Positions 10,000-34,609 are shown, counted from the stretch's first letter. The stretch: DNA of 39,058 nucleotides from a virus (IMGVR_UViG_3300012208_000002); one strand, 5' to 3'. Numbers and translations are program-made. Notes: generated by a model not told the origin, from the letters alone.

Positions 10000-10215
10000 A
10001 TGGCAAAGCACGATAAAGCGTACGACCAGGTGGCGGTGCCATCAATGGGCGGAAGCAACCCCGCAGGTAAGGATTCTGCGAATTGTGATGACGCTCTGGG
10101 CAACCCGAGCCGCTTCCAGAGAAACGCTACGACCGTAGCGACAGCAGACCCTGACTCAGAGTTGAAGGCAACCCGCGAAAAGCAGTTAGGCGAGAACGGG
10201 TATCAAGGAAACTAA
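10000..10215 (+). CDS. hypothetical hydrophilic protein
   Basis: ORF track, AGGAG RBS. Confidence 0.65.
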   Translation: MAKHDKAYDQVAVPSMGGSNPAGKDSANCDDALGNPSRFQRNATTVATADPDSELKATREKQLGENGYQGN

Positions 10216-10277
10216 GAAAGTTTAAAATAAGACTTGACAAACTTTCGAGTTTGTGAGACACTAGACAGGTCAAAAGT
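10213..10277 (+). promoter_or_regulatory. tRNA-array promoter copy 1 (TTGACA 10234-10239, GACACT 10257-10262)
   Basis: near-identical repeat at 10401-10463; spacer hairpin ACAAACT-TTCG-AGTTTGT. Confidence 0.75.
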
Positions 10278-10282
10278 TCAAT

Positions 10283-10357
10283 GGTGAGCGTCGTATAACG
10301 GTAGTACTTCCGGCTGTGAACCGGATAGCACGGGTTCGACACCCGTCGCCCACCCCA
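10283..10357 (+). tRNA. trnH: tRNA-His (GTG)
   Basis: cloverleaf, G-1/C73, CCA. Confidence 0.9.
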
Positions 10358-10400
10358 AGTTCTTTCTGGCAGTCAGGTCCTATCCCTAGATTGCCGGATG

Positions 10401-10463
10401 AAGAAAGTTTAAAATAGTGCTTGACAGAATTTCGATTCTGTGAGACACTAGACAAGTCAAAGT
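10401..10463 (+). promoter_or_regulatory. tRNA-array promoter copy 2 (TTGACA 10421-10426, GACACT 10444-10449)
   Basis: repeat of 10213-10277; spacer hairpin ACAGAAT-TTCG-ATTCTGT. Confidence 0.75.
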
Positions 10464-10487
10464 AAACTTTAATTCGAAAGGACTACT

Positions 10488-10634
10488 GTGGAATACAAAG
10501 TTACGTTAACTCAGAAAGTCAAAATCGAAGTAGAAGCAGAGACACCGCAGTCAGCGCTAGAACAGGCTAAGGCTCAAGCCACAGCCGATAACAGAATTTT
10601 TGAACCTGACACATTTTCAGTAAAAGAACAGTAA
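10488..10634 (+). CDS. 48-aa protein MEYKVTLTQKVKIEVEAETPQSALEQA... (DpnD/PcfM-like pattern)
   Basis: read manually; AAAGGA RBS, GTG start. Confidence 0.65.
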   Translation: MEYKVTLTQKVKIEVEAETPQSALEQAKAQATADNRIFEPDTFSVKEQ

Positions 10635-10642
10635 GAAGTTTA

Positions 10643-10716
10643 CCTGCTTTGATGTATCGGTCGCATCCTCGCCTGAAGAGCGAGTCGAGCTAGTTCGATT
10701 CTAGCAGGCAGGACCA
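10643..10716 (+). tRNA. trnF: tRNA-Phe (GAA)
   Basis: cloverleaf, loop CTGAAGA, CCA. Confidence 0.88.
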
Positions 10717-10722
10717 AGTTTT

Positions 10723-10810
10723 GCGTCTGTGGATGGAATTGGCAGACACGTCGCTCTCAAAAAGCGATGCCCTAAACGGCGTGGGAGTTCGAGTCTCCCC
10801 GGACGCACCA
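10723..10810 (+). tRNA. trnL: tRNA-Leu (CAA)
   Basis: cloverleaf with variable arm, CCA. Confidence 0.93.
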
Positions 10811-10817
10811 AGATTGA

Positions 10818-10914
10818 AATCGTGAGCACAGCGGAAGCGTCAACTTCTCGGGTGCTTGTTCATTTACAGCGTTGACGCGCTCATGTGAATAAGGGTTCGA
10901 TTCCCTCACGGATA
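10818..10914 (+). ncRNA. tRNA-like RNA with T-arm and oversized central stem-loop, no CCA
   Basis: AGGG-TTCGATT-CCCT; AATCGTG/CACGGAT; GCGTCAAC/GTTGACGC. Confidence 0.45.
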
Positions 10915-10922
10915 TTAGATTT

Positions 10923-11014
10923 AGTCTCATAGCACAACGGCAGTGCAGCGGCCTTATACACCGTAAGCTCCGGATTGGAGCGTGATGTAGGTTCGAATCC
11001 TACTGAGACTACCA
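10923..11014 (+). tRNA. tRNA with TAT anticodon (nominal Ile) and long variable arm
   Basis: 7/5 cloverleaf, loop CTTATAC, V-arm GCTCC/GGAGC, A73, CCA. Confidence 0.8.
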
Positions 11015-11019
11015 GTTTT

Positions 11020-11106
11020 GTGGCTGTGATGGAATAGGCAGACAGCAATCACTTAAAACGATTGGCTCGAAAGAGCGTAGGGGTTCAAGTCCCTTCAGCC
11101 ACACCA
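11020..11106 (+). tRNA. trnL: tRNA-Leu (TAA)
   Basis: cloverleaf with variable arm, CCA. Confidence 0.9.
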
Positions 11107-11112
11107 AGTTTC

Positions 11113-11187
11113 GCGCTTCAAGTGTTACGATAGCACAGCGGGCTCTTAACCCGTCGAGACTCAGTTTAATTCTGAGGAGGCGCACCA
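11113..11187 (+). tRNA. trnK: tRNA-Lys (CTT), non-canonical D/T loops
   Basis: cloverleaf, T-loop TTTAATT, CCA. Confidence 0.85.
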
Positions 11188-11192
11188 AGTTT

Positions 11193-11256
11193 CGGGTTCT
11201 CACTTCGTTGTTCGGGTGAGGTAATTGGCGAACGGATACGTAGCCGATTCCTGAGA
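11193..11256 (+). ncRNA. putative three-way-junction structured RNA
   Basis: CTCACTT/GGGTGAG and ATTGGC/GCCGAT hairpins closed by TCGGG/CCTGA. Confidence 0.35.
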
Positions 11257-11263
11257 AAGTTTT

Positions 11264-11339
11264 GGACTGCTACGTCAAAGGCAAGACTACGCGCCTTTTA
11301 AGCGCTGGAATCTCCGTTCGAGTCGGAGGCGGTCCACCA
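11264..11339 (+). tRNA. trnK: tRNA-Lys (TTT)
   Basis: cloverleaf, CCA. Confidence 0.9.
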
Positions 11340-11343
11340 AATT

Positions 11344-11434
11344 TCCCATCGGTGTGAGAACGCACCGTTCGCTTTCAAGGCAGAAGCGGCGTCATTCCGT
11401 TCGACTCGGATTCGCGGCGAAGTTCACGATGGGA
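11344..11434 (+). ncRNA. tRNA-like RNA with TCA in an anticodon-like loop and an extra hairpin, no CCA
   Basis: TCCCATCG/CGATGGGA, D-like GTGT/GCAC, loop TTTCAAG, TCCG-TTCGACT-CGGA. Confidence 0.5.
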
Positions 11435-11442
11435 TTAAGTTT

Positions 11443-11539
11443 CATGGGAATACAGTTCGGAATTACATCGAACAGTCGTCGGGAAGACTAGTCAGTACCG
11501 CCGAAAGGACGGGGCGAGAAACCCCGGGTTCCCAGACCA
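11443..11539 (+). ncRNA. cryptic cloverleaf RNA ending in ACCA with 8-nt anticodon-like loop
   Basis: TGGGAAT/GTTCCCA, GTTCG/CGAAC, AGTC-GTCGGGAA-GACT, CGGGG-CGAGAAA-CCCCG. Confidence 0.5.
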
Positions 11540-11541
11540 TT

Positions 11542-11679
11542 ATGTATATTGATTACGAAAGTTTTTCTGCTGAATCTCTCGCCGAGGATCGGGAAAAGAT
11601 GTGGCAAGATATTGTAGATGAACTTTATGAAAAGTTAAACGGAGAGGTTGGGGCAACAGGTCGCCCTACTCGGCTGTAA
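11542..11679 (+). CDS. 45-aa acidic micro-ORF ending inside tRNA-Tyr
   Basis: read manually; no clear RBS. Confidence 0.4.
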   Translation: MYIDYESFSAESLAEDREKMWQDIVDELYEKLNGEVGATGRPTRL

Positions 11680-11729
11680 CCCGAGAGTCCCTTGGGACGT
11701 TATAGGTTCGAATCCTATTCTCTCCACCA
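11641..11729 (+). tRNA. trnY: tRNA-Tyr (GTA)
   Basis: cloverleaf with variable arm, CCA. Confidence 0.92.
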
Positions 11730-11730
11730 T

Positions 11731-11804
11731 ATTCGACTCGTTCAACGGTAGGACCCGCGTCCGATTAACGCGGTATCAAGGTTCGAATCCTTGGTCGAAT
11801 ACCA
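11731..11804 (+). tRNA. trnI: tRNA-Ile (GAT), atypical anticodon loop CCGATTA
   Basis: cloverleaf, CCA; C33 and U37. Confidence 0.8.
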
Positions 11805-11807
11805 ATT

Positions 11808-11936
11808 ATGACGTACGAAGAAAAAGCAGAAGCATTGAATAAACATGCTGACTCGTGTCCGCAATGTAACCTATCACGGAAGTGTAGTGATACTCGCGGA
11901 TGCTGTGAAGAAGGTAAAAAGATTTTGGGCTGTTAG
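11808..11936 (+). CDS. 42-aa Cys-rich micro-ORF (CPQC...C...CC) ending inside tRNA-Ala
   Basis: read manually; no clear RBS. Confidence 0.45.
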   Translation: MTYEEKAEALNKHADSCPQCNLSRKCSDTRGCCEEGKKILGC

Positions 11937-12000
11937 TTAAGTGGGATAACGGTTGCCTTGCACGCATCAGTCGGGAGTTCGACTCTCCCACGGTCCACCA
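11927..12000 (+). tRNA. trnA: tRNA-Ala (TGC)
   Basis: cloverleaf, G3-U70, CCA. Confidence 0.92.
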
Positions 12001-12008
12001 ATTTCAAT

Positions 12009-12083
12009 ATGCTGCTGGCAGATCGGCAGATGCACTCGGTTTACACCCGAGACAGCGGGGTTCAACTCCTCGGCGGCATACCA
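12009..12083 (+). tRNA. trnV: tRNA-Val (TAC)
   Basis: cloverleaf, CCA. Confidence 0.9.
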
Positions 12084-12159
12084 GTTTAATGATCGTCTTG
12101 CTGTAGACCGGAAATAAGCAGCCTCCGTTTAGGGAGTAGCGCAAACTCCTCCATATTTT

Positions 12160-12235
12160 GGGCTTGTCATCTAACAGGACAAGGTTCAGGTCTACGAAAC
12201 CTGCAATTACGGTTCGAGTCCGTACAGGCCCACCA
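12160..12235 (+). tRNA. trnR: tRNA-Arg (ACG)
   Basis: cloverleaf, A20, CCA. Confidence 0.92.
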
Positions 12236-12240
12236 AGTTC

Positions 12241-12315
12241 GGACTGTTCGTTCAATGGATAGGACACCGCGCTTCGAACGCGGCTATAGGGGTTCGAATC
12301 CTCTACGGTCTACCA
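12241..12315 (+). tRNA. trnR: tRNA-Arg (TCG)
   Basis: cloverleaf, A20, CCA. Confidence 0.92.
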
Positions 12316-12345
12316 AGTTTATGTAGTGCGATGCGTTGGCCCTAA

Positions 12346-12465
12346 GTGCGGTTGACAGGGGCATCTGGCCCAGATTATTACGCCTGACGAAGCGAAAGCA
12401 GAAACTCGAAAGAGTCGCGTGGAGTCCTCCCATCTGGGAAATAAATGAGGACCTAAAGACCGCAC
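12346..12465 (+). ncRNA. type I hammerhead ribozyme core (12378-12422) inside a closed structured RNA
   Basis: CTGACGA, GAAA, GTC triplet, stems I and III paired; outer GTGCGGT/ACCGCAC. Confidence 0.65.
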
Positions 12466-12474
12466 AAATTTTAT

Positions 12475-12549
12475 TGGTGGTTCGTCTAATGGTAAGACGC
12501 TCGGCTGTTAACCGTGAAGATGAAGGTTCGAATCCTTTGCCACCAGCCA
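12475..12549 (+). tRNA. trnN: tRNA-Asn (GTT)
   Basis: cloverleaf, G73, CCA. Confidence 0.92.
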
Positions 12550-12554
12550 TTTAA

Positions 12555-12628
12555 GCCGAATTAGTATAGTGGTAGTACGTCGAGCTTGTACCTCGAAAGT
12601 GAGCGTCCGATTCGTTCATTCGGCTCCA
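12555..12628 (+). tRNA. trnT: tRNA-Thr (TGT)
   Basis: cloverleaf, T-loop TCCGATT, CCA. Confidence 0.9.
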
Positions 12629-12636
12629 GTCTCTCA

Positions 12637-12772
12637 GTTGTGCGGATAGTATCGTGCGATAGTTGGCCGAAGTGATGTGAGAGCATCCTCGGATACATCC
12701 CTCACGCTGGCTACCATCCAATGACGGTAGGCACCGTTGCTTTCGAGTAACGAGTAACGCCAGTCGCACAAC
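12637..12772 (+). ncRNA. putative multibranched structured RNA (136 nt)
   Basis: GTTGTGCG/CGCACAAC closing stem, GATGT/ACATC, CTGGC/GCCAG, CTACC/GGTAG, GTTGC/GTAAC. Confidence 0.5.
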
Positions 12773-12782
12773 AAAGATTTTT

Positions 12783-12856
12783 GCACTTATGATCTAATGG
12801 TATGATGCCGCTTTCGTAAAGCGGACGTGGTGGTCCGATTCCATCTAGGTGCTCCA
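12783..12856 (+). tRNA. trnT: tRNA-Thr (CGT)
   Basis: cloverleaf, T-loop TCCGATT, CCA. Confidence 0.9.
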
Positions 12857-12869
12857 GTTTAGGAGTAAG

Positions 12870-13031
12870 ATGATTGACAAGATTATTTTTGGATTACAAG
12901 CAGGAAGCTTCTCTTTGATGCTGGTCCTGTTAATCTTTTTCAAAGCGTCTTACGGTTTGATGATTTCGACTTTTGGTTTGCATGCTCTTGCTGATACATT
13001 GTTCGTACTACGCAGTAAAGGAGTACTATGA
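12870..13031 (+). CDS. small two-helix membrane protein (MIDKIIFGLQ...)
   Basis: AGGAG RBS before ATG 12870; hydrophobic. Confidence 0.65.
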   Translation: MIDKIIFGLQAGSFSLMLVLLIFFKASYGLMISTFGLHALADTLFVLRSKGVL

Positions 13032-13216
13032 ACCTATCAACGATTCTGAGTTCTGTAGACAAGTACATTAAGATCAAGTCCTGGCTTCAGTTTGTTGGTT
13101 ACATGTTAGCGTTCGGCGGATTGGTATTCATCGAACACCCGCTCGCAAAGATAGTAGCGTACGTCGGTTTAGGCGTCAGCATGGCAGGATTTTTGTACGA
13201 CATGATTTATCCTTAA
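13028..13216 (+). CDS. small two-helix membrane protein
   Basis: AGGAG RBS, ATGA overlap, hydrophobic. Confidence 0.7.
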   Translation: MNLSTILSSVDKYIKIKSWLQFVGYMLAFGGLVFIEHPLAKIVAYVGLGVSMAGFLYDMIYP

Positions 13217-13223
13217 GAGTTTC

Positions 13224-13284
13224 GCGGTCGCAGTGGCTATTCCGGCGCTGTGCTAAGTGGGAAGTCCGATGCCTTCTAACCGCC
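13224..13284 (+). ncRNA. short tRNA-like remnant or structured RNA ending in CCA
   Basis: GCGGT/ACCGC, GCAGTG/CGCTGT, GAAG-TCCGATGC-CTTC. Confidence 0.3.
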
Positions 13285-13291
13285 AGTATTC

Positions 13292-13365
13292 GCTTCGATG
13301 GTTCAATGGTAGAACGGGTCCTTGGTAAGGATCAGACTACAGTCCGATTCTGTATCGAAGCTCCA
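13292..13365 (+). tRNA. trnT: tRNA-Thr (GGT)
   Basis: cloverleaf, T-loop TCCGATT, CCA. Confidence 0.92.
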
Positions 13366-13387
13366 GTAACTTGTCCGAAAGGGCATA

Positions 13388-13463
13388 GGAAGTTTTAAAC
13401 AGTTAGACGCGCAAGCGGACCTTACAGTCGAAAGACGGGACGGACCCTTAGTAAGGAACTTCC
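13388..13463 (+). ncRNA. putative GNRA-rich multibranched RNA
   Basis: GGAAGTT/AACTTCC, CGC-GCAA-GCG, CCTTAC/GTAAGG, GTC-GAAA-GAC, GGG/CCC. Confidence 0.5.
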
Positions 13464-13477
13464 GAGCATTTAGTTTT

Positions 13478-13552
13478 GGTGCTAGGGTCAGTTGGTAACG
13501 ACGAGCCCCTGTCACGGGTTAAGTCCGGGTCCGATTCCCGGTAGCACCGCCA
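13478..13552 (+). tRNA. trnD: tRNA-Asp (GTC)
   Basis: cloverleaf, G73, T-loop TCCGATT, CCA. Confidence 0.92.
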
Positions 13553-13565
13553 GTTTAGGAGACTT

Positions 13566-13646
13566 ATGATTATAGGAATTCTCATAGGTGTCATAGCATT
13601 AGTTGTGTTCTTGTACATGATAAAAGGTATGGGATACAAAGAGTAA
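13566..13646 (+). CDS. 26-aa single-pass membrane peptide MIIGILIGVIALVVFLYMIKGMGYKE
   Basis: read manually; AGGAGA RBS. Confidence 0.6.
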   Translation: MIIGILIGVIALVVFLYMIKGMGYKE

Positions 13647-13650
13647 TTAC

Positions 13651-13724
13651 GGCCCTGTCGTCTAAAGGCAGGACATTTGCTTCTCAAGCAAGCGACGGCG
13701 GGTCAGTACCGCCCAGGGCCTCCA
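13651..13724 (+). tRNA. trnE: tRNA-Glu (CTC), atypical T-loop GTCAGTA
   Basis: cloverleaf, CCA. Confidence 0.85.
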
Positions 13725-13763
13725 ATTTAAATTTCATATCAATTGACCGGAGGGTCTAAGTAT

Positions 13764-14186
13764 ATGAGTAGTTCAGATAACGATAGGAACAGACGCAGGA
13801 GTGACTTCTTAGGTGTGTCGTTTAGTACGGCCACATTTAAATTAAGAAAGAAAATTTTATTCCATCTTCTTAAAAAGCACCAAGAAGATGTTTGCTCTCA
13901 GTGCGGTAAAAAGATTGAGACGATAGAAGAATTGAGTATTGAGCATTTAAAGCCGTGGGAAGGAATTTCTGTTGACCTGTTTTGGGATATCGAAAACATA
14001 GCGTTTTCTCATATTCGTTGTAATGTACCGCATAAATACAATAACGGTCAATTAAAGCCCAGGCCCGACGGAGCAGACTGGTGCGGCCCAGGGCAGCATT
14101 TCGCTCCCGTTGAAGATTTTTACAAGAGCAAATGGTATCATACAGGAAGGCAGAAGTGGTGTAAAATTCACCGTCCTGCTAGATAA
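13764..14186 (+). CDS. HNH endonuclease-like protein
   Basis: CSQCG...SIEHLKPW...NIAFSHIRCN; GGAGG RBS before MSSS. Confidence 0.8.
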   Translation: MSSSDNDRNRRRSDFLGVSFSTATFKLRKKILFHLLKKHQEDVCSQCGKKIETIEELSIEHLKPWEGISVDLFWDIENIAFSHIRCNVPHKYNNGQLKPRPDGADWCGPGQHFAPVEDFYKSKWYHTGRQKWCKIHRPAR

Positions 14187-14194
14187 TTTTGAGT

Positions 14195-14280
14195 TTGCAC
14201 GTTACTGTTTTGGCTTCAGCATGCGTTGAGAGTCAAGGCGTCAACTGAGACCGTCTACCGCATGTAGAACGGGAGTGCAA
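14195..14280 (+). ncRNA. putative pseudoknotted RNA
   Basis: TTGCAC/GTGCAA, GTTGA/TCAAC, CCGT-CTAC-CGCAT-GTAG-A-ACGG; loop CGCAT complementary to upstream ATGCG. Confidence 0.45.
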
Positions 14281-14287
14281 TTAATAT

Positions 14288-14362
14288 GGCGATATCGTCC
14301 AGTGGCTAGGACGGGTGACTTTCAATCACCAAACCAGGGTCCGATTCCCTGTATCGCTACCA
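14288..14362 (+). tRNA. trnE: tRNA-Glu (TTC)
   Basis: cloverleaf, T-loop TCCGATT, CCA. Confidence 0.92.
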
Positions 14363-14411
14363 ATATGTTTCACTATACGGACACATGTGTCTTTATAGCG
14401 AGATAAGTAAT

Positions 14412-14496
14412 GCGCTAGTGGTGGAACGGCAGACACGCCAGTCTTAGAAACTGGTTCTGAAAACGAGTGGGGGTTCAAATCCCTCCTGGCGCACCA
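14412..14496 (+). tRNA. trnL: tRNA-Leu (TAG)
   Basis: cloverleaf with variable arm, CCA. Confidence 0.93.
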
Positions 14497-14505
14497 AATT
14501 TCTGT

Positions 14506-14580
14506 TGCGGTGTATAGTTCTGGTGAACTTCGAGGTCTCATAAGCCTTGCAGGAAAGTTCGATTCTTTTCGCCGCTACCA
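14506..14580 (+). tRNA. trnM: tRNA-Met (CAT), initiator-like
   Basis: 1:72 mismatch (T/T), loop CTCATAA, CCA. Confidence 0.8.
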
Positions 14581-14585
14581 ATTTA

Positions 14586-14663
14586 CGCTGAGAGGTCCAC
14601 CGGAAAGTGGACGGCGGTCTCATAAACCGTAACAGGTTGGTTCGACTCCAACTTCAGCGACCA
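14586..14663 (+). tRNA. tRNA with CAT anticodon (elongator Met or Ile2)
   Basis: cloverleaf, D-stem extendable to 6 bp GTCCAC/GTGGAC, CCA. Confidence 0.85.
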
Positions 14664-14669
14664 ATTCGA

Positions 14670-14743
14670 GCGGCTGTGGTTCAGTGGTAGAATTCGTCCT
14701 TGCCAAGGATGAGATACGGGTCCGATTCCCGTCAGCCGCTCCA
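14670..14743 (+). tRNA. trnG: tRNA-Gly (GCC)
   Basis: cloverleaf, U73, T-loop TCCGATT, CCA. Confidence 0.92.
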
Positions 14744-14752
14744 AGTTCACGC

Positions 14753-14820
14753 GCCTGTCAAGGCATTGGGGTCGCCCCAGAATACTGACCTTCCGACTAG
14801 TAAGCCCGCGAGGGGACTAG
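14753..14820 (+). ncRNA. three-hairpin structured spacer
   Basis: GCCT/AGGC, TGGGG/CCCCA, CTAGT..CCC-GCGA-GGG..ACTAG. Confidence 0.3.
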
Positions 14821-14830
14821 CAAAAATTTT

Positions 14831-14929
14831 ATGAGCAAAGAAAAAGAATGTTTAGATTGTAAAGTTCCAGTACGTGAGTCCTCAGAAGGACTTCGAAACG
14901 AAGACGGAACTTTTCATATCTGTAAATAA
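14831..14929 (+). CDS. 32-aa micro-ORF with CxxC...HxC (MSKEKECLDCK...)
   Basis: read manually; fills spacer exactly. Confidence 0.45.
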   Translation: MSKEKECLDCKVPVRESSEGLRNEDGTFHICK

Positions 14930-14934
14930 GTTTT

Positions 14935-15008
14935 GCGGGTGTGGTATATAGGTTGTGCCCTGGCCTTCCAAGTCAGAGAAACGAGTCCGAGTCTCGTCAC
15001 CCGCTCCA
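14935..15008 (+). tRNA. trnG: tRNA-Gly (TCC)
   Basis: cloverleaf, U73, T-loop TCCGAGT, CCA. Confidence 0.9.
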
Positions 15009-15013
15009 AGTTT

Positions 15014-15087
15014 AGGCTGTTAGGACAATGGTAGTCTACTCGCCTCCAAATCGAGTGATGGGAGTTCAATTCTCTCACGGCCTGCCA
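15014..15087 (+). tRNA. trnW: tRNA-Trp (CCA)
   Basis: cloverleaf, G73, CCA. Confidence 0.9.
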
Positions 15088-15096
15088 AATTTGCAA

Positions 15097-15197
15097 ACGC
15101 TGCTGGTCAGCGGTGTTAGCGGGGTTAGCGCCCCGATGACCTATTTCGGTAACTTCCGAGCGCCTTATGCCGGGCGAGATGGCTTGAAACCCAAGGC
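15097..15197 (+). ncRNA. putative multi-hairpin RNA
   Basis: CGCTG/CAGCG, CGGGG/CCCCG, TCGG/CCGA, CGCC/GGCG hairpins in series. Confidence 0.35.
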
Positions 15198-15208
15198 TAT
15201 AATTTTAT

Positions 15209-15284
15209 GGTCCCGTGGTCTAACGGAAAAGGCAACAGCCTTCTAAGCTGAAAGATGAGTGTTCGATTCACTCCGGGACTACCA
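15209..15284 (+). tRNA. trnR: tRNA-Arg (TCT)
   Basis: cloverleaf, CCA. Confidence 0.92.
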
Positions 15285-15289
15285 GTTTT

Positions 15290-15365
15290 GGTTCTGTAGC
15301 TCAAACGGAAAGAGCATCTGCCTCCTAAGCGGGAGATGACGATTCGAGTTCGTCCAGGACCACCA
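15290..15365 (+). tRNA. trnR: tRNA-Arg (CCT)
   Basis: cloverleaf, CCA. Confidence 0.92.
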
Positions 15366-15372
15366 GTTTTAT

Positions 15373-15677
15373 TTTGGTAAGCCAGACTGTCGCGGGAAAC
15401 CGAGGAACTTCTGGACATCACTAGACAGAGAGCCGTGGAAGTTGCGGGCCGAGTAATCGGACGGGTAAGGCTTCGTATGTAAGCGAGCGCTGACATTGCA
15501 AAATGTCATCGAGCGCTGACATCATTCAAGCGAAGGCACTCCACTCTCGATGCAATCTCAAATAGGGCTGGAGCGCGTCTAGCGTTATGATAGCCGGGTT
15601 GAGAGCAAAGACGGATGACAGTCAGGTTGACACCTAACAGTGGCGACCGACAGAATCCAGGGTATCGGCTAACCAAA
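15373..15677 (+). ncRNA. rnpB: RNase P RNA (compact, bacterial A-type-like)
   Basis: P1, P2 GACTGTC/GACAGTC, P4 GAGGAACTTCTGGA with TCCAGGGT, CTCCAC...GCAA...CAAATAGGG, ACAGAA 3' motif. Confidence 0.85.
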
Positions 15678-15684
15678 GCATTAC

Positions 15685-15771
15685 GGAGAAGTGGCGAAAT
15701 GGTAGACGCAACGGTTTGCTAAACCGTCGTACCGAAAGGACGTGGGAGTTCAAGTCTCTCCTTCTCCGCCA
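15685..15771 (+). tRNA. trnS: tRNA-Ser (GCT)
   Basis: cloverleaf with variable arm, G73, CCA. Confidence 0.93.
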
Positions 15772-15778
15772 ATTTAAT

Positions 15779-15869
15779 GGAGCGCAGTCGGCAATGGTGC
15801 CCCACTGTCTTGAAAACAGTACTATCCCTTATAAAGGATAACGGAGTTCGATTCTCTGGCGCTCCTCCA
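15779..15869 (+). tRNA. trnS: tRNA-Ser (TGA)
   Basis: cloverleaf with variable arm, U73, CCA. Confidence 0.88.
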
Positions 15870-15875
15870 TTTAAT

Positions 15876-15952
15876 GTCTCAGATGCTGAAGCGGTCGAAG
15901 CGGAAGTCTGCAAAACTTCTCTTAGTCAGTTCGAGTCTGACCTGGGACTCCA
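15876..15952 (+). tRNA. trnC: tRNA-Cys (GCA)
   Basis: cloverleaf, U73, CCA. Confidence 0.9.
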
Positions 15953-15959
15953 ATTTTAT

Positions 15960-16034
15960 TGGCTTGTCGTCTAATCGGTAGGACGAAGGACTTTGAATCC
16001 TTCTATCCAGGTTCGAGTCCTGGTGAGCCAACCA
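15960..16034 (+). tRNA. trnQ: tRNA-Gln (TTG)
   Basis: cloverleaf, U1-A72, CCA. Confidence 0.9.
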
Positions 16035-16041
16035 TTTCAAT

Positions 16042-16116
16042 TGCCCGATCATCTAATTGGTAGGATAGCGGACTCTGAATCCGCGCATCTAGGTTCGAGT
16101 CCTAGTTGGGCAGCCA
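16042..16116 (+). tRNA. trnQ: tRNA-Gln (CTG)
   Basis: cloverleaf, U1-A72, G73, CCA. Confidence 0.92.
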
Positions 16117-16208
16117 ATTTAGCAACACACTGAACAGAGGCTTCGCTAATCCCGAAACAGTGTACATCCTTGTAAGTGCTCTGCCAAGTATCAAGGATGA
16201 GGTGCAAG

Positions 16209-16964
16209 ATGAGAAAATTTCTTGCGTTGTTCACATTAGCTACTTTACTTGTCCTGGGCGGTCTTCTTGTAAAGCCCTGGAATTCATACGAGCCCGAAGC
16301 ACGACTCGCATCTGGTGCGATGTTTTCAGGCAGCGACCGTAGTTTTCACTGTTCTGGCACTGAGATCGGCGCTACAGCAGACGGCGGTGGGATATTCCTG
16401 ACCGCACGTCACTGTGTAGCCGACCCACAGACAAATAAGCTTAACGAGCACTTCGCCGTCTCATTCACAGATAACCAGGGTGGTCCGTTTTATGACGCCA
16501 CGCCTATTGCGCTATCTTTGAGCGACGACCTGGCTCTGCTCTACGTAAAGAATGGCGCTGGTATTCCACAGGTCCGAATTAAGGACGAGCGCAGTCTCCG
16601 TAGTGGCGACCCGATATTCAACGTCTCGTTCCCATTGGGCACGGGCAAGGAACTGTTCCACGGCGAGTACATGCGTGCGAGCTTCCCGACGTTCCCTAGT
16701 ATCATAGCAAGTTATCCGCAGTGGCTGTACGCTATGCCGATGAACATGACTATCGCGCACGGTTCAAGCGGAAGCGGCGTGTTCAGTAATAAGCAGCGTG
16801 CTCTTATTGGAGTTGCCGTAGGAACCTTCGAAGAGGGAACTTACAATATCGCAATTCCAGCAGACCGTGTCCTGGACTTTCTAAACGATTTGAAAGACAA
16901 CACGGTGGAGAAGTTTAAGTATGCTTTTCCAGAAAAAGAACCTAACGAATTCATGATGTTTTAA
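16209..16964 (+). CDS. trypsin-like serine protease with N-terminal membrane anchor/signal
   Basis: LTARHC, DDLALL, HGSSGSG triad motifs; MRKFLALFTLATLLVLGGLLV. Confidence 0.85.
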   Translation: MRKFLALFTLATLLVLGGLLVKPWNSYEPEARLASGAMFSGSDRSFHCSGTEIGATADGGGIFLTARHCVADPQTNKLNEHFAVSFTDNQGGPFYDATPIALSLSDDLALLYVKNGAGIPQVRIKDERSLRSGDPIFNVSFPLGTGKELFHGEYMRASFPTFPSIIASYPQWLYAMPMNMTIAHGSSGSGVFSNKQRALIGVAVGTFEEGTYNIAIPADRVLDFLNDLKDNTVEKFKYAFPEKEPNEFMMF

Positions 16965-16970
16965 TTTTAT

Positions 16971-17059
16971 CGGGGTGTAGTTCCGTAATCTGGCAGCGGT
17001 CTCGCTTTGGAAGCGAGTGGTTAATACCCTTGGAGGTTCAATTCCTCTCACCCCGACCA
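16971..17059 (+). tRNA. trnP: tRNA-Pro (TGG) with extra nucleotides before the D-stem and enlarged variable region
   Basis: CGGGGTG/CACCCCG, loop TTTGGAA, CCA. Confidence 0.8.
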
Positions 17060-17106
17060 TTTTGTTCGAAGAAGTATAGTACTTGGAGTGTAGTATAGGA
17101 GCGCAA

Positions 17107-17391
17107 ATGAACGTTATATCTATGGTAGCTAATCTTGTCAAAGAACGAGATTACTACAAAGAATCATTCATAGAGTGTCAAGCTATCATTAAACAGTTAG
17201 CTGAAGGTCCTGGCGATATCGAATACATTCATCCATTTGATATGTATGATATTCTTAACTCAACGGACGCTAGTGAATTCATCGATGTTTACACGGGTCC
17301 GAAGGATGAAAGAACTTTTACGTTAGGTAAATCTGGAAAGAAATACAAGCAATCTCAGTTCATTCCAGCAAAGTCGAAAAATTTTAAGTAA
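17107..17391 (+). CDS. hypothetical protein
   Basis: AGGAG RBS before MNVISM. Confidence 0.7.
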   Translation: MNVISMVANLVKERDYYKESFIECQAIIKQLAEGPGDIEYIHPFDMYDILNSTDASEFIDVYTGPKDERTFTLGKSGKKYKQSQFIPAKSKNFK

Positions 17392-17392
17392 T

Positions 17393-17471
17393 CGAGAAAT
17401 AGAGGAGCCTGGCTTATCTCGCCCCGTTCGGAACGGGGAGCACGCTGGTCCGAATCCAGCTTTCTCGACCA
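17393..17471 (+). tRNA. trnP: tRNA-Pro (CGG)
   Basis: cloverleaf, T-loop TCCGAAT, CCA. Confidence 0.9.
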
Positions 17472-17477
17472 TATTAT

Positions 17478-17503
17478 AGCCGCCTGATACTTGGGCGGCT
17501 TTT
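17478..17503 (+). terminator. rho-independent terminator closing the tRNA array
   Basis: GCCGCCT/GGGCGGC then TTTT. Confidence 0.7.
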
Positions 17504-17518
17504 GCATTTCAGGGGCAT

Positions 17519-27404: not shown

Positions 27405-27887
27405 ATGTCGTATAAAACTGGAATAGAACTGCACGAGTATCATCAGAGAAAGTTTAAGAAGTGCCCATTTTGCATTAAAGAGTGTAAACGTAATATAGCA
27501 AACGGAAGAAATAAGGGGCATTACAGGACCTGTGGTTCTATAGATTGTATAAGAGCAGCGAAAAACAGACCGGAAGTCGTTGCTAAGAAAACTCATCGAG
27601 GAAGTTCTAACCCTAATTGGATACACGATAGAACTAAAGTTAAATTTCAAAGAAGCAGAATAGAATTGAAGTGGTGGAGAGAAGAAATTTTTAGACGCGA
27701 TAATTATGTTTGTCAAGAATGCGGTAAACGCGGAGGCCGTCTTCAGGCTCACCATAAGAAATCATATGCCTTGTTTCCTAATTTACGATTCGATATTTCG
27801 AACGGCGAAGCATTGTGTGAAGACTGTCATAAGAAAACTTCCTCATATTGTAGGTCTCTAGAGGTGCAATTTGCCCGCAGTTTCTAA
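27405..27887 (+). CDS. HNH endonuclease
   Basis: RDNYVCQECG...LQAHHKK...NGEALCEDCH. Confidence 0.9.
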   Translation: MSYKTGIELHEYHQRKFKKCPFCIKECKRNIANGRNKGHYRTCGSIDCIRAAKNRPEVVAKKTHRGSSNPNWIHDRTKVKFQRSRIELKWWREEIFRRDNYVCQECGKRGGRLQAHHKKSYALFPNLRFDISNGEALCEDCHKKTSSYCRSLEVQFARSF

Positions 27888-30127: not shown

Positions 30128-32479
30128 ATGCTAGCGGGACAGGAAAAGAGGGATTGGGAGTTTGTAAGCTATCGAGCAAAGAAGCAGATGGCACTCTGGC
30201 CCAGGTTGGTCAGGGGAGAAGCCGAAGGACTCGATCTTTCTGGGGTAGACCCTGAAATTCTTGCTTGCTGCGTTGAGGGAAAAAACTTCCGAAGCGAAGG
30301 TCACGTTAGTCCTGTAGACGGAACGGGCCGTATAAAGTCTCCGATGGAAGAGATGTGGCTACTGTACATCGGCGTACAGAGCATATCTGAAGAAGACGAA
30401 GCACGCGGCAAGGATAAGCCTGAGTCCAAGACTAAGGCCAAATCTAAGCCTAAGAAGTCGAAGGATCGGGATGACGAAGCGATAGAGCCTATCAAGGCCC
30501 GTCGAGTAGTAGGTCATCAGATTATCGATAAGGATTCAAATCCTACGGATCAGTGGTCTTACGATTCCGTTCAGTGGATTAATGACAAAACAGGAAAGCC
30601 AACTGGGGGAATTAACGCCTACGGCGGAATTCATTTCCACGATGACGGCTATCTTGATTTTTCAGCGTGGCTGTATGCTAGGGACCAGGCTCGAAAAGAC
30701 CTTCTCTGGTTTAACGTCGCCGTACTGGGGAACACTAAAGTAAACAGAGCAACTCATCAAATTGTATGTAATCAATTCGTTCAGAAGAATTTTGATGGGG
30801 TGTATAGGCGTGGATATTCTTTGGACGTGGTCCAGGCATCTATCGGACGCCAAAATCGAATTCCTGTTCAGTGGAATCCGGTTATTAAGAATTACGAACC
30901 CATTCTAGAAGAAGCATCGATTCCAGAGAATTTAGAGTCGATGATGATTTTGCTGTACCCTCGTGGATTTTTCAAGTCCACTATCGGTCGTGCAGACGCG
31001 GTCCAATGGCTGTTGAATTGCCCTGACATATCTATGATGATTATGACTGCGGCCCGCGACCTAGCGGCCCAGTTCGTTTTGGATATAAAAAGGCAATTTT
31101 ATTTAGCGAAAGGCGCAGACCCGAAAGCACTTCATTTACTATTCCCTGAGTATGTTCTTCGCGGAGTAGACGGAACTTCGGCTGAAGACTTAATTTGCCC
31201 TGCTCGCCGCCGTGAACGCATTTACCCAACTTTATGGGCTGATAGTATTGATTCTACACTTTCTGGGTGGCACTGCGATTTATTGAAGTTTGATGACGCG
31301 GTCTCAAACACTAACTGTCTTACAGACACGACCAGAGAAAAACTTCGTGGCAGTATCGATAACACCCTGAACTTATGCGATCCTTGGGGCAAAGTCGATA
31401 TGCTAGGAACCAGATACTTCCCTGACGATTATTACGGAACCCGTTTTGATAAGTATATCGAAGAACCAGAGACGGCGGGATTGAAGTTTTTTGTTGGCGC
31501 AGCATGGTACGTTAAATCAGAGTTCATTCATATCGAGAGAAAAAGTCTCAGAGATTTGATGGAACATATGGTTATTCTGACGTTCCCAGAGCACGCCTCT
31601 TTTAAGTCTCTTCGCGGAAAACTGGTTAACAATGAGCAAGAATTTCGTTGCCAGCAGTTAAATCAACCTGTGTGGGGAGCAGGCAAGGTTGATCTTCCTC
31701 TTGCACTTCTACAAGCCCACATGATGTTGCCTACAGAGGCTAAGGCTCTGAAAGGCGATGTCCTCATTATGGGCGACATGGCTAAAGAGGCCAAGAAAAA
31801 CTCAGATTACTCCGCCTTCGTTGCCGTAAAGATTTTTCAGAGAATAGACCAAGCAACAAATACACCGATAGGTCCTGTCTCTGTTGTGGTTCTTGAAGTC
31901 GTTTACGGAAAGTGGAGTCAGTCAGAAACAGCAAACAGTCTTGCAGAACTAAATAAAAGATGGCTGCCGTGGCGTATTCAGATTGAGAATACAGGTGGTC
32001 TAGAGTCTTTTATGACTTACGCCATACCGGATGCATTTAAGAAAACCAACTTGCCTTGGCATCATATTTATTGGGCTGCTGTTGAGCAAGGTTTCGATGC
32101 AAAGCGTAATCGTATTAAGGGTCTAGAAATTCTTCTCAAGGCAGAACGATTGTGGTTCTCTATGGGTCCTTGGAATGACGAAACTTTCTCCCAACTGAGT
32201 CAATACACGGGCGCAAAGAGTACTCGAAGCAGAAAAGATGATATACCAGATGCTATGGCATTCATTTCTAAATACCTGCCTAGCAGCACTCCGAAGACAC
32301 CCGAAGAACAGGAACAGGAAGCAAATCAAGCCGAAAAAGAGATGATGGCAAAATTTCTGGCGGCGCAGCACGAAGCATATTTTGGCAATAGTAATCCCAA
32401 CTTCGCACCACAACAAATAGAGGAATCCCCGATATCTTCTCCGTATGACGACATTAAGAAGAAGTTTTTGGGAAGATAG
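30128..32479 (+). CDS. terL: terminase large subunit with N-terminal extension
   Basis: PRGFFKST Walker A, FDDA Walker B, MGDMA..SDYSA and KDDIPDA nuclease motifs. Confidence 0.9.
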   Translation: MLAGQEKRDWEFVSYRAKKQMALWPRLVRGEAEGLDLSGVDPEILACCVEGKNFRSEGHVSPVDGTGRIKSPMEEMWLLYIGVQSISEEDEARGKDKPESKTKAKSKPKKSKDRDDEAIEPIKARRVVGHQIIDKDSNPTDQWSYDSVQWINDKTGKPTGGINAYGGIHFHDDGYLDFSAWLYARDQARKDLLWFNVAVLGNTKVNRATHQIVCNQFVQKNFDGVYRRGYSLDVVQASIGRQNRIPVQWNPVIKNYEPILEEASIPENLESMMILLYPRGFFKSTIGRADAVQWLLNCPDISMMIMTAARDLAAQFVLDIKRQFYLAKGADPKALHLLFPEYVLRGVDGTSAEDLICPARRRERIYPTLWADSIDSTLSGWHCDLLKFDDAVSNTNCLTDTTREKLRGSIDNTLNLCDPWGKVDMLGTRYFPDDYYGTRFDKYIEEPETAGLKFFVGAAWYVKSEFIHIERKSLRDLMEHMVILTFPEHASFKSLRGKLVNNEQEFRCQQLNQPVWGAGKVDLPLALLQAHMMLPTEAKALKGDVLIMGDMAKEAKKNSDYSAFVAVKIFQRIDQATNTPIGPVSVVVLEVVYGKWSQSETANSLAELNKRWLPWRIQIENTGGLESFMTYAIPDAFKKTNLPWHHIYWAAVEQGFDAKRNRIKGLEILLKAERLWFSMGPWNDETFSQLSQYTGAKSTRSRKDDIPDAMAFISKYLPSSTPKTPEEQEQEANQAEKEMMAKFLAAQHEAYFGNSNPNFAPQQIEESPISSPYDDIKKKFLGR

Positions 32480-32488
32480 GAAACCTAA

Positions 32489-34609
32489 ATGACGGAATCG
32501 TTAAACCAGCACGCGGCTGAAACTCTAGAGAGTAGGGCAGTCGATCCTGTAGGCGATATAACGTCAGAGAACATGAAGAAGGACCAGGATACTGGGACTT
32601 ACATGTACGATGACGGAGCAGCATTAAAACTAGTTATCGATGACGCTGCACGCGCCGATCAGTACGCAAACATAAACCAGTGGTCGAGCGCATGGACGGA
32701 ATCCGATATTATTTTGCAGAGCCCGCGTCAAGCTTCGGCTTTCGACGGTGGTAACGTAGCTCAGGCAAACGTTCCGAAGTTTACGCTTTCAAATCACATT
32801 AGTTCGATTGTTCCTAAAGTCATAGAGGGTTTGTTTTATGAAGACCCCCCGTTCATACTTCGTCCGCGCCCTGGCACAAAGCAAGAAGTAACACGGGCAA
32901 AGACCGCTCTGTTCTCCGCGCAACTTTGGGATATGAAGTTTCAAACCCAGTTGAGACGCGGCACAGAGCAGATGGCTCTTCTGGGCACCACGATATTCAA
33001 GTGGGGCTATCTTGAGCACGACGATCAAATCAAGAGGGCTCGTCGTAAAGCATCCCAGGTAACTCTTAATACAACGATTCCGGTTCCAGCAATCGATACC
33101 CCGGACTCTGACGATTTCGAAACCTACGTTGAAGCAGTAAAGATTTCTCGTCCGTGGATTAGGTTCTGCGATATCCGTACAGTCCTTGTGGACCCTGGCT
33201 GTCGTGTTGGTGATATCCGTGAAGCAAAGTGGGTCATCTATAGAGATTATGTAACGTACGATGATCTGAACAATCTGCGAGCAATTCCAGGCTACAACAT
33301 CCTGAGCGAAGAAGACCTGAAAGCATTCTTCTTGTCTGGTCCAACAGTGGGCGCGGACAACATCAGCATGACTATCCCGGAAGGTATGCGCGGATACTTG
33401 CAGCATGCCCTTCCTAGAAGCTTCAAGACCAGTGCCGATCCTTTGCAGGCACCGATGGAACTTCTTGAACGTTGGGACAGAGATAAAGTTATCGTTATAC
33501 TGTCTTTCAACGGTCAAAACATTTTACTTAGAAATGAACCTAACCCATACGGCAAGTTGCCGTTCCTTAGCGCAAACTGGAGAGACCTTCCAGATAGCTT
33601 TTACGGACAGGGCTTAGGACAACTTATCGGGGCAGAACAAATCGTTGAGCAAGGGATAACGAACCTAGCATTAGACCTACTTGCCTATGGTTTGCAGCCC
33701 ACAGCAGTTCGAAAGAAGGGCTTCAACGTTCCTACTCAGATGACGCGCTGGAAGCAGGGCGGCATAATTGATGTGGACGATGACGTGGAGAAGGCATTCA
33801 AGTTTTTGACGATGCCCCCGGTCCCAGGCGAAGCTTGGCAATTCTTACAACAGGCAAGAGCCGCCGCGCAAGAGACTTCAGGCGCAAACGAACAAGTTAT
33901 GATGGGCGCTGGTTCTGCTGGCGTCAAGACAACAGGAATGCGTTCTGGTACGGGCGCAGCAGCCGTGGTACAGGCTAATGCATCTAGATTGGACGGCCCT
34001 AGCAGCCGCTTGGTAGAACAGGTTTTCGAACCCTGGATTTACCAGATGGACGAACTGAATAATCTGTTGCTTCCGACAAAAGTTCTACGCCGCATATTGG
34101 GCGAAGAATTGGGTATGGTTTACGAAGGGGATCATATCGAGTTTCGTAATGCGAAATTCGAATATGAGGTTCTGGCAGGAGCGCACTTGGGCGCAAAGAA
34201 GGAAATGGCCCAGGCTCTTCCAATCATAATTCAACTTTTGAATAATCCTACATTTACGAAACTTGTTAATGAGGCTCAATTCACATTTGATGCGGTCGCT
34301 ATTTTCAAGGCATTTACTGACGCAGCGGGCTGGAAGTTCAGTCAAGATTTCTTGCGCCAGATGACGCCAGATGAATCGCAACGCTATCAAGCCAACTCTC
34401 CCGCAGCCATGCAAGCGCAGCAATTGCAGGGGCAGAAGGATATGCAGGAACGAAAGTTCCAGCAAGATCGAATTCTTGAAGATGAGAAGTCGCTCGGAAA
34501 GGCTGGAGCAGAGGCACTTCGATCAGCAACTGAACATAGTTTGAGTATGGAGCAAACAGGGGAACCAAGTAGCAATCCTCAGTCCTTCGGATCAACAACA
34601 ACGTTATAG
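32489..34609 (+). CDS. portal protein (P22-like)
   Basis: 706 aa after terL; NPYGKLPF, FYGQGLGQLI, Q-rich C-terminal barrel. Confidence 0.85.
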   Translation: MTESLNQHAAETLESRAVDPVGDITSENMKKDQDTGTYMYDDGAALKLVIDDAARADQYANINQWSSAWTESDIILQSPRQASAFDGGNVAQANVPKFTLSNHISSIVPKVIEGLFYEDPPFILRPRPGTKQEVTRAKTALFSAQLWDMKFQTQLRRGTEQMALLGTTIFKWGYLEHDDQIKRARRKASQVTLNTTIPVPAIDTPDSDDFETYVEAVKISRPWIRFCDIRTVLVDPGCRVGDIREAKWVIYRDYVTYDDLNNLRAIPGYNILSEEDLKAFFLSGPTVGADNISMTIPEGMRGYLQHALPRSFKTSADPLQAPMELLERWDRDKVIVILSFNGQNILLRNEPNPYGKLPFLSANWRDLPDSFYGQGLGQLIGAEQIVEQGITNLALDLLAYGLQPTAVRKKGFNVPTQMTRWKQGGIIDVDDDVEKAFKFLTMPPVPGEAWQFLQQARAAAQETSGANEQVMMGAGSAGVKTTGMRSGTGAAAVVQANASRLDGPSSRLVEQVFEPWIYQMDELNNLLLPTKVLRRILGEELGMVYEGDHIEFRNAKFEYEVLAGAHLGAKKEMAQALPIIIQLLNNPTFTKLVNEAQFTFDAVAIFKAFTDAAGWKFSQDFLRQMTPDESQRYQANSPAAMQAQQLQGQKDMQERKFQQDRILEDEKSLGKAGAEALRSATEHSLSMEQTGEPSSNPQSFGSTTTL

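Follow-up and report, generated by a model that had tools for sequence, protein, structure and literature searches.

The subject of this analysis is a 39,058-nucleotide stretch of DNA from a virus (IMGVR_UViG_3300012208_000002; the whole stretch is called the window below), in which 35 transfer RNA (tRNA) genes, all on the + strand, fill a block of about 7 kb (positions 10284-17471) and enclose a gene for a reduced bacterial type A ribonuclease P (RNase P) RNA. Each of the 35 tRNA genes ends in a genomically encoded CCA and together they cover all 20 amino acids; ARAGORN called 33 of them and Rfam the other two, which bears out the tRNA complement described in an earlier note on this DNA. With many same-strand tRNAs in a phage genome, and a homing endonuclease and small open reading frames (ORFs) between them, the array is in most respects an ordinary large phage tRNA cluster, and what sets it apart is the conserved gene for a reduced RNase P ribozyme. 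We consider it probable that the array is a phage tRNA operon whose embedded RNase P RNA is released by tRNA processing, pairs with the host RnpA protein and serves the precursor tRNAs (pre-tRNAs) of the phage.

A reduced type A RNase P RNA within the tRNA array

15374-15680, + strand, reduced bacterial type A RNase P RNA gene, 307 nucleotides, supported by the RF00010 match, homologues and covariation

The RF00010 covariance model matches this interval over its full span (model positions 1-367) with a score of 104 bits against a gathering cut-off of 100 (E 1e-31), confirming that the array holds an RNase P RNA, as had been claimed from the sequence. Helices P1-P5, P7-P12 and P15-P17 are present, as is the P4 pseudoknot with its bulged U, and the J5/15 region (GCAA...AAUAGG) can be recognized in the window and in its relatives. 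The core motifs GAGGAA, AGAnGAAUG and ACAGAA are kept in all nine sequences that we compared. So is the GGU of L15, which binds the 3' CCA of tRNA (within CGGGU, or CAGGU in the homologue G005), a motif that fits the uniformly encoded CCA of the array's tRNAs.

The full set of peripheral helices, comprising a long P3, P13/P14 and P18, is not there: P18 measures 0 nucleotides against 24 in the model, the P13/P14 region 17 against 48, and P3 consists of 3 base pairs (bp) closed by GAAA. Some natural RNase P RNA variants also lack part of the peripheral helices. The missing helices mark the RNA as a reduced variant and do not exclude it from type A.

Homologues keep the structure through compensatory changes

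Eight further distinct homologues were found on viral or metagenome contigs, scoring 80-158 bits where scored, with two relatives below the RF00010 cut-off. The nine distinct sequences are thus those of the window, of the IMG/VR records G001, G002/G004, G003, G005 and G006, and of the metagenome contigs L316, L325 and L299. G001 was reached through the protease gene of the array, and its own array of 30 tRNAs contains a homologue of 284 nucleotides; the others came from a search with a 16-mer of the specificity domain followed by an nhmmer profile. Seven of the eight homologues, all but that of G005, lie within arrays of 29-32 tRNAs or fragments of such arrays, in which every tRNA again carries an encoded CCA. 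In bacterial genomes the same 16-mer has at least 120 matches; those listed are chance matches only, and none of them fits the phage RNase P profile. A second, 14-base pattern from P4 returned mostly chance matches in IMG/VR.

The nine RNAs range from 266 to 364 nucleotides and share 48-70% pairwise identity. Across this divergence P4 is paired in 72 of 72 cells, with compensatory double changes at four of its eight pairs and an invariant bulged U; four of its pair positions take three to four different Watson-Crick types. P2 is likewise paired in 63 of 63 cells, four of its seven pairs being compensatory. An RNAalifold consensus of the nine sequences (the analysis was also made on six) contains P2 (or P4), P3, P5/7, P8, P9, P10/11 and P15-17, and 34 of its 50 pairs show compensatory double changes. 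Whereas the catalytic domain is constant, the size of the trimmed specificity domain differs between relatives, and P18 is present in G005 and G006. That P4 and P2 pairs and the core motifs have been kept through compensatory changes at 48-70% identity argues that the window gene is bona fide and not a pseudogene, and we read the phage RNAs as one lineage of type A that is reduced, diverse and under structural constraint.

In several members an additional hairpin separates P2 from the 3' strand of P4 (15608-15640 in the window, with equivalents in G003, G006 and L316), at the position of P19 in some bacterial RNAs; its loop is a GNRA tetraloop in G003 and G006, and the hairpin of L316 is long. 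Full-span RF00010 matches of 238-257 nucleotides (52-62 bits, E 1e-16 to 1e-20) also occur in three more large IMG/VR contigs of 94-533 kb, one of them classed as a provirus: L386 (G008:55292-55535), L387 (G009:77412-77668) and L388 (G007:464339-464576). These lie outside tRNA arrays, with the nearest tRNAs about 8 kb away or none within 10 kb, and may represent viral RNase P RNAs of even smaller size, or something different.

Placement, transcription signals and a proposed route to the mature ribozyme

The ribozyme gene of the window begins 8 nucleotides past the CCA of tRNA-Arg(CCU) and stops 4 nucleotides before tRNA-Ser(GCU). Comparable distances separate the ribozyme 3' end from the next tRNA 5' end in the window, G001, G003, L316 and L299 (2-6 nucleotides; 14 in L325), and its 5' end from the preceding tRNA 3' end in the window, G001, G003 and G006 (2-8 nucleotides). 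The tRNAs themselves are closely packed, with 15 gaps of at most 9 nucleotides, many of them 5-9. Their 5' leaders are U-rich, with U at position -1 in 24 of the 35, compared with 26% T across the array, and their trailers start R-K-U-U. Only tRNA-His has G at -1, and it has C73 as well; bacterial RNase P leaves G-1 on tRNA-His where this G-1/C73 arrangement is present.

Candidate signals for transcription lie at both ends of the array.

10217-10265, + strand, promoter-like element, copy 1: A/T-rich upstream stretch, TTGACA at 10234-10239, 17-nucleotide spacer, TG-n-GACACT at 10254-10262
10403-10451, + strand, promoter-like element, copy 2: TTGACA at 10421-10426, 17-nucleotide spacer, -10-like GACACT at 10444-10449
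17478-17510, + strand, intrinsic terminator: 10-bp stem with 6 G-C pairs, followed by a T-rich tail

The two promoter-like copies are near-identical repeats of about 60 nucleotides on either side of tRNA-His. A consensus promoter scan misses both because the -10 hexamer has only three of six matches; the element recurs in two copies in G003 and in one copy in G002/G004, where the -10 reads TAGACT. We take the tandem elements as putative sigma-70-type promoters with an extended -10. The hairpin at 17478-17510 directly follows the last tRNA, and outside tRNA bodies no other site resembles a strong terminator. Tandem promoters and a single terminator had been claimed to bound the array, and the conserved repeats and the single strong terminator agree with this, promoter function being predicted from the motifs; from promoters to terminator the array is plausibly one transcription unit.

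We propose that the tandem elements drive one long + strand transcript that runs to the terminator and carries the 35 CCA-ending tRNAs together with the embedded type A RNase P RNA. Given that the tRNAs are closely spaced and have U-rich leaders, each would need an RNase P cut and, because the ribozyme gene is wedged between tRNAs, their processing would also release it: the cut that matures tRNA-Ser would set the 3' end of the ribozyme, and its 5' end would be freed as tRNA-Arg undergoes 3' processing. Once released, the RNA would most likely pair with the host RnpA protein, a partner that we infer because no phage rnpA gene was found, and would add to, or replace, the host's 5'-processing capacity for a burst of phage pre-tRNAs.

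Several observations weigh against this proposal. In G002/G004 and G005 the ribozyme lies from 89 to more than 1000 nucleotides from the nearest tRNA, and tight flanking by tRNAs is thus common and not universal. At positions 67/68 of P4 a C-U replaces the near-universal A67-G68, with compensation. P18 is gone and P3 and P13/P14 are strongly reduced; as these peripheral helices stabilize the fold, activity could be weak or dependent on protein. The RnpA family PF00825 was not found in 40 ORFs of the window or in six-frame scans of G001-G005, all of these records being incomplete (22-77%). Finally, the single transcript, the discrete ends and the catalytic activity are all deduced from sequence features.

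It had been suggested that the transcript carries its own 5'-maturation enzyme and forms a largely self-processing module. The RNA subunit of such an enzyme is present, in the form of a type A RNase P RNA under structural selection, and to this extent the suggestion stands; with no RnpA gene found, and with 3' trimming still needing host nucleases, 'largely self-processing' overstates the case. We would put at slightly better than even the chance of a stronger statement, namely that a soil phage lineage encodes an active, miniaturized RNase P ribozyme, self-excised from a tRNA precursor, that frees tRNA 5' maturation from the host RNase P RNA. Such independence, if real, would matter, for example, under host transcription shut-off or degradation of host RNA.

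Alternative roles for the RNase P RNA

We think it unlikely that the RNA is mainly a regulator or competitor, which would bind limited host RnpA or pre-tRNAs and divert processing to the phage, or shift the choice of substrates through its reduced specificity domain. Such a role would suit an RNA that, with no phage rnpA found, must share the host protein, and whose specificity domain is trimmed and variable in size next to a constant catalytic domain; nine of the phage tRNAs, moreover, have an unusual UCCGA T-loop, in a part of the tRNA that the specificity domain reads. A pure decoy, however, needs neither catalytic-core motifs nor the bulged U of P4 nor the CCA-binding GGU, and all of these are conserved.

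Less probable again is a ribozyme independent of host RnpA, working as RNA alone or with an unrecognized phage protein, so that 5' maturation of tRNA would be fully autonomous. In vitro, bacterial type A RNAs are catalytic without protein, the extra hairpin of several members, often with a GNRA loop, could add stabilizing contacts, and many neighbouring ORFs belong to no known family. Against this, loss of P18 and P13/P14 normally raises dependence on protein, and a candidate partner protein was not found.

That the gene is a functionless, decaying passenger acquired from a host along with tRNA genes might be argued from its length, which is below that of cellular type A RNAs, from its score barely above the Rfam cut-off and from the two relatives below it, but this is very improbable, because nine sequences that are too divergent (48-70% identity) to be recent copies of one another have retained all P4 and P2 pairs by compensatory change, along with all core motifs. 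Our preferred reading thus remains that of a released ribozyme that pairs with host RnpA and serves phage pre-tRNAs.

Spacer RNAs

The earlier note, taken at its fullest, leads to a model in which hammerhead self-cleavage helps to make the array a self-processing module and most spacers hold functional structured RNAs. We find this model scarcely credible. What speaks for it is a CUGANGA...GAAA...GUC string that could form stems I and III, the multi-branch shapes into which some spacers fold, and the precedent of theta ribozymes beside phage tRNAs (PMC10879173).

12384-12426, + strand, claimed hammerhead core, unsupported and rejected

The hammerhead fails every test that we applied. No Rfam hammerhead model matched at E<=1 across 7.7 kb, and no Rfam ribozyme model did so at E<=10 in a 501-nucleotide search. 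As read from the sequence at 12384-12410, stem II would amount to two base pairs, a G-C and a C-G that enclose a GAAA loop, and the conserved 10.1/11.1 pair would be A.A. The bare core motif occurs three times in the window where 1.18 occurrences are expected, which is close to chance. Similarity to the spacer (12316-12474) was not found in six related arrays, and its folding z-score of -0.5 is unremarkable.

Minimum-free-energy z-scores were computed for 17 spacers, on both strands, and for 30 coding controls (mean -0.78, s.d. 1.39). Those of the spacers fall mostly between 0 and -2.5 and overlap the controls; modest outliers are limited to the RNase P RNA, the promoter-bearing spacer, 12629-12782, 11188-11263 and the 14363-14411 hairpin. 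Conservation by blastn is limited to the promoter element, the RNase P RNA and 12629-12782. The 'about six' unclassified structures thus shrink to one with comparative support, and the idea of a functional RNA in nearly every spacer is not upheld, most spacers being unconserved, background-like in their folds or occupied by protein genes. Besides the RNase P RNA, the spacers hold ordinary phage genes, probable tRNA remnants, one conserved candidate RNA and unconserved filler.

12629-12782, + strand, candidate for a new structured RNA, with a tRNA-Thr gene on either side (core conserved at 12629-12773), from comparison
10816-10916, + strand, tRNA-like element, terminal stem of 7 bp, T-arm perfect, no CCA, from its fold
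14366-14405, + strand, near-perfect 16-bp hairpin in the 49-nucleotide spacer between tRNA-Glu(UUC) and tRNA-Leu(UAG), z-score -3.6 to -4.2

The conserved core 12629-12773 is 95% identical over 145 nucleotides to a segment of G003 (L142:11449-11593), against only about 75% for the tRNA next to it. Among its few differences from G003, two are compensatory pairs in one hairpin, a G.U pair favours the + strand and its z-score is -2.0 to -2.5. It matches no Rfam family, and a homologue search returned only G003, giving two copies in all. An antisense ORF across the interval was rejected, because the differences from G003 are non-synonymous while the RNA pairs are kept. We regard 12629-12782 as a fair candidate for a new small RNA, although its likeness to G003 may instead reflect a recently exchanged segment.

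Three tRNA-like RNAs had also been proposed. They do fold as cloverleaf-like four-way junctions, one of them with a perfect T-arm; they have no match to the Rfam tRNA model at E<=1 and relatives were not detected. A low-threshold ARAGORN run that allowed introns, on seven spacers, gave only weak calls, at 10816-10916 and 11350-11418. These elements could be decayed tRNA genes. The hairpin at 14366-14405 has no T-tail and is hence not a typical terminator; it could be a site of processing or of protein binding.

tRNA genes of the array

The tRNA genes are as follows; for the two found by Rfam only, the anticodons were read from the loops.

10284-10357, + strand, tRNA-His(GUG), encoded G-1 and discriminator C73, ARAGORN
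10643-10716, + strand, tRNA-Phe(GAA), ARAGORN
10723-10810, + strand, tRNA-Leu(CAA), ARAGORN
10923-11014, + strand, 92-nucleotide tRNA(UAU) whose body is of class II, with a long variable arm, ARAGORN and Rfam
11020-11106, + strand, tRNA-Leu(UAA)
11113-11187, + strand, tRNA-Lys(CUU), Rfam only, 84% identical to tRNA-Lys(CUU) of G003
11264-11339, + strand, tRNA-Lys(UUU)
11641-12315, + strand, tRNA-Tyr, Ile(GAU), Ala(UGC), Val(UAC), Arg(ACG) and Arg(UCG), ARAGORN
12475-12628, + strand, tRNA-Asn(GUU) and tRNA-Thr(UGU), ARAGORN
12783-12856, + strand, tRNA-Thr(CGU), ARAGORN
13292-13552, + strand, tRNA-Thr(GGU) and tRNA-Asp(GUC), ARAGORN
13651-13724, + strand, tRNA-Glu(CUC), atypical T-loop, Rfam only
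14288-14362, + strand, tRNA-Glu(UUC), ARAGORN
14412-15365, + strand, tRNA-Leu(UAG), two tRNA-Met (CAU), Gly(GCC), Gly(UCC), Trp, Arg(UCU) and Arg(CCU), ARAGORN
15685-16116, + strand, tRNA-Ser(GCU), Ser(UGA), Cys, Gln(UUG) and Gln(CUG), ARAGORN
16971-17059, + strand, tRNA-Pro(UGG), ARAGORN and Rfam
17393-17471, + strand, tRNA-Pro(CGG), the last tRNA, ARAGORN

The tRNA(UAU) with a long-variable-arm body (90-93 nucleotides, anticodon loop CUUAUAA) is common to six of these phages, the window and five others (L004:2020-2112, L142:10853-10942, L316:471-561, L325:900-990 and L299:765-856). The stem of its variable arm covaries; G002, G004 and G006 have a normal 75-nucleotide tRNA(UAU) instead. In nine tRNAs within 12555-17471 (three Thr, Asp, Glu-UUC, two Gly, Pro-CGG and one more) a UCCGA T-loop replaces UUCGA, so that a C stands where pseudouridine 55 is normally formed. 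The T-loops of tRNA-Lys(CUU) and tRNA-Glu(CUC) are also atypical.

Protein genes within the array

Seven ORFs preceded by good Shine-Dalgarno sites are embedded among the tRNAs; two of them encode an HNH endonuclease and a trypsin-like protease.

10488-10634, + strand, 48-residue ORF, ribosome-binding site AAAGGA, no conservation among the relatives compared
12870-13031, + strand, small membrane-protein ORF with an AGGAG site
13028-13216, + strand, 62-residue membrane-protein ORF with an AGGAG site, matched by an ORF of 69% identity in metagenome contig L316
13566-13646, + strand, 26-residue hydrophobic ORF with a TAGGAG site
13764-14186, + strand, HNH homing-type endonuclease (Pfam PF01844, PHROG 23251)
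16176-16964, + strand, trypsin-like serine protease with an N-terminal hydrophobic segment (Pfam PF13365), homologue in G001 73% identical
17107-17391, + strand, 94-residue ORF with a TAGGAG site, 42% identical to an ORF inside the G003 array

Homologues of the HNH gene lie within the arrays of L299, L325 and L316; the protease, the 62-residue membrane protein and the 94-residue ORF likewise have counterparts inside arrays of relatives. For the micro-ORFs at 10488, 11808, 12870, 13566 and 14831, tblastn found no relatives in the compared loci.

Phage context and environmental occurrence

30128-32479, large terminase, by profile matches in the window
32489-34609, SU10-type portal, by profile matches in the window

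We treat the source of the tRNA operon as an uncultured soil phage, because a large terminase and an SU10-type portal lie in the same window, no near relative of the window is found among GenBank phage records and soil metagenome runs carry the array. Independent soil DNA runs contain 96-100% of the array's sampled words (two of them are possibly the source of the window), which argues that the array is not a one-off assembly artefact. DNA matches in GenBank phage records were absent both for the array and for three RNase P RNA queries. The closest cultured phage by terminase, Tunturiibacter phage Tunturi_3, is 24% identical and has no RF00010 match. No RNA run is listed as containing the whole array; metatranscriptome contigs from three studies match only pieces of 40-79 nucleotides of the RNase P gene. 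One piece is identical over 79 nucleotides and then diverges, and one flank shows a P4 strand like that of G002. These pieces probably come from relatives and neither support nor refute expression of the window locus.

Many ORFs of the window have no assignable family. HNH endonuclease genes are present both inside the tRNA array (13764-14186) and among structural and packaging genes (27405-27887). A 200-residue ORF on the - strand (812-1414) matches the RNA ligase family PF09414 (E 6e-13) and, together with the tRNA array, hints at a theme of tRNA repair or counter-defence.

Comparison with known systems

RNase P RNA is among the few ribozymes common to all cellular domains and is normally seen as a hallmark of cells and organelles. 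Full-text literature searches, jumbo-phage reviews included, turned up no account of an RNase P RNA encoded by a virus, which is not proof of absence. If the phage copy works, a core 'cellular' ribozyme functions as a viral gene, and phage takeover of translation would reach past tRNAs and modification enzymes into tRNA processing. This raises the question of why RNase P RNA would be limiting or vulnerable during infection. The phage RNAs also offer natural, independently minimized forms (266-364 nucleotides) for structure-function work.

Large phage tRNA arrays, such as the tRNA regions of T4 and T5, are also dense same-strand clusters with HNH homing endonucleases and small ORFs, and the T4 cluster also contains small stable RNAs of unknown function. 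The array of the window has an RNase P RNA, whereas none of the descriptions of large phage tRNA arrays that we searched places one inside. Phage tRNA clusters with HNH endonucleases are known (PMC6582537), and phage tRNA arrays have been discussed as a counter to host defences that target tRNA (PMC10264068, PMC11464382, PMC11555353). Catalytic RNA has likewise been linked to phage tRNAs in the theta (HDV-like) self-cleaving ribozymes that adjoin them (PMC10879173). Those ribozymes are small, self-cleaving and act in cis; the RNase P RNA of the window belongs to a trans-acting, multiple-turnover class, and no self-cleaving ribozyme family has a match in the array.

With the M1 RNA of Escherichia coli (rnpB; RF00010) the window RNA shares its family, the P4 pseudoknot with bulged U, the core motifs and the L15 GGU. 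It differs in being phage-borne within a tRNA array, in its length (307 against about 377 nucleotides), in having no P18, a 3-bp P3 and a reduced P13/P14, in the compensated change at P4 67/68 and in that no adjacent or detectable rnpA gene was found.

The arrangement recalls that of organelles. Yeast mitochondrial RPM1 encodes a reduced RNase P RNA between tRNA-fMet and tRNA-Pro that is released by tRNA-processing cuts to which it itself contributes, its protein being encoded elsewhere. Other organellar rnpB genes with flanking tRNAs are likewise reduced and co-transcribed with them, as we suppose for the window gene. Such an organellar rnpB, however, is the remnant of an endosymbiont's own gene, whereas the gene of the window is viral and its host presumably already has one.

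Naturally minimized RNase P RNAs are found in other lineages and settings, such as the type A RNA of Mycoplasma fermentans, of about 276 nucleotides, and the type T RNA of Pyrobaculum, which has no specificity domain. These RNAs also lose peripheral helices and keep the catalytic core; unlike the type T RNA of Pyrobaculum, the window RNA keeps a small specificity domain (P7-P12).

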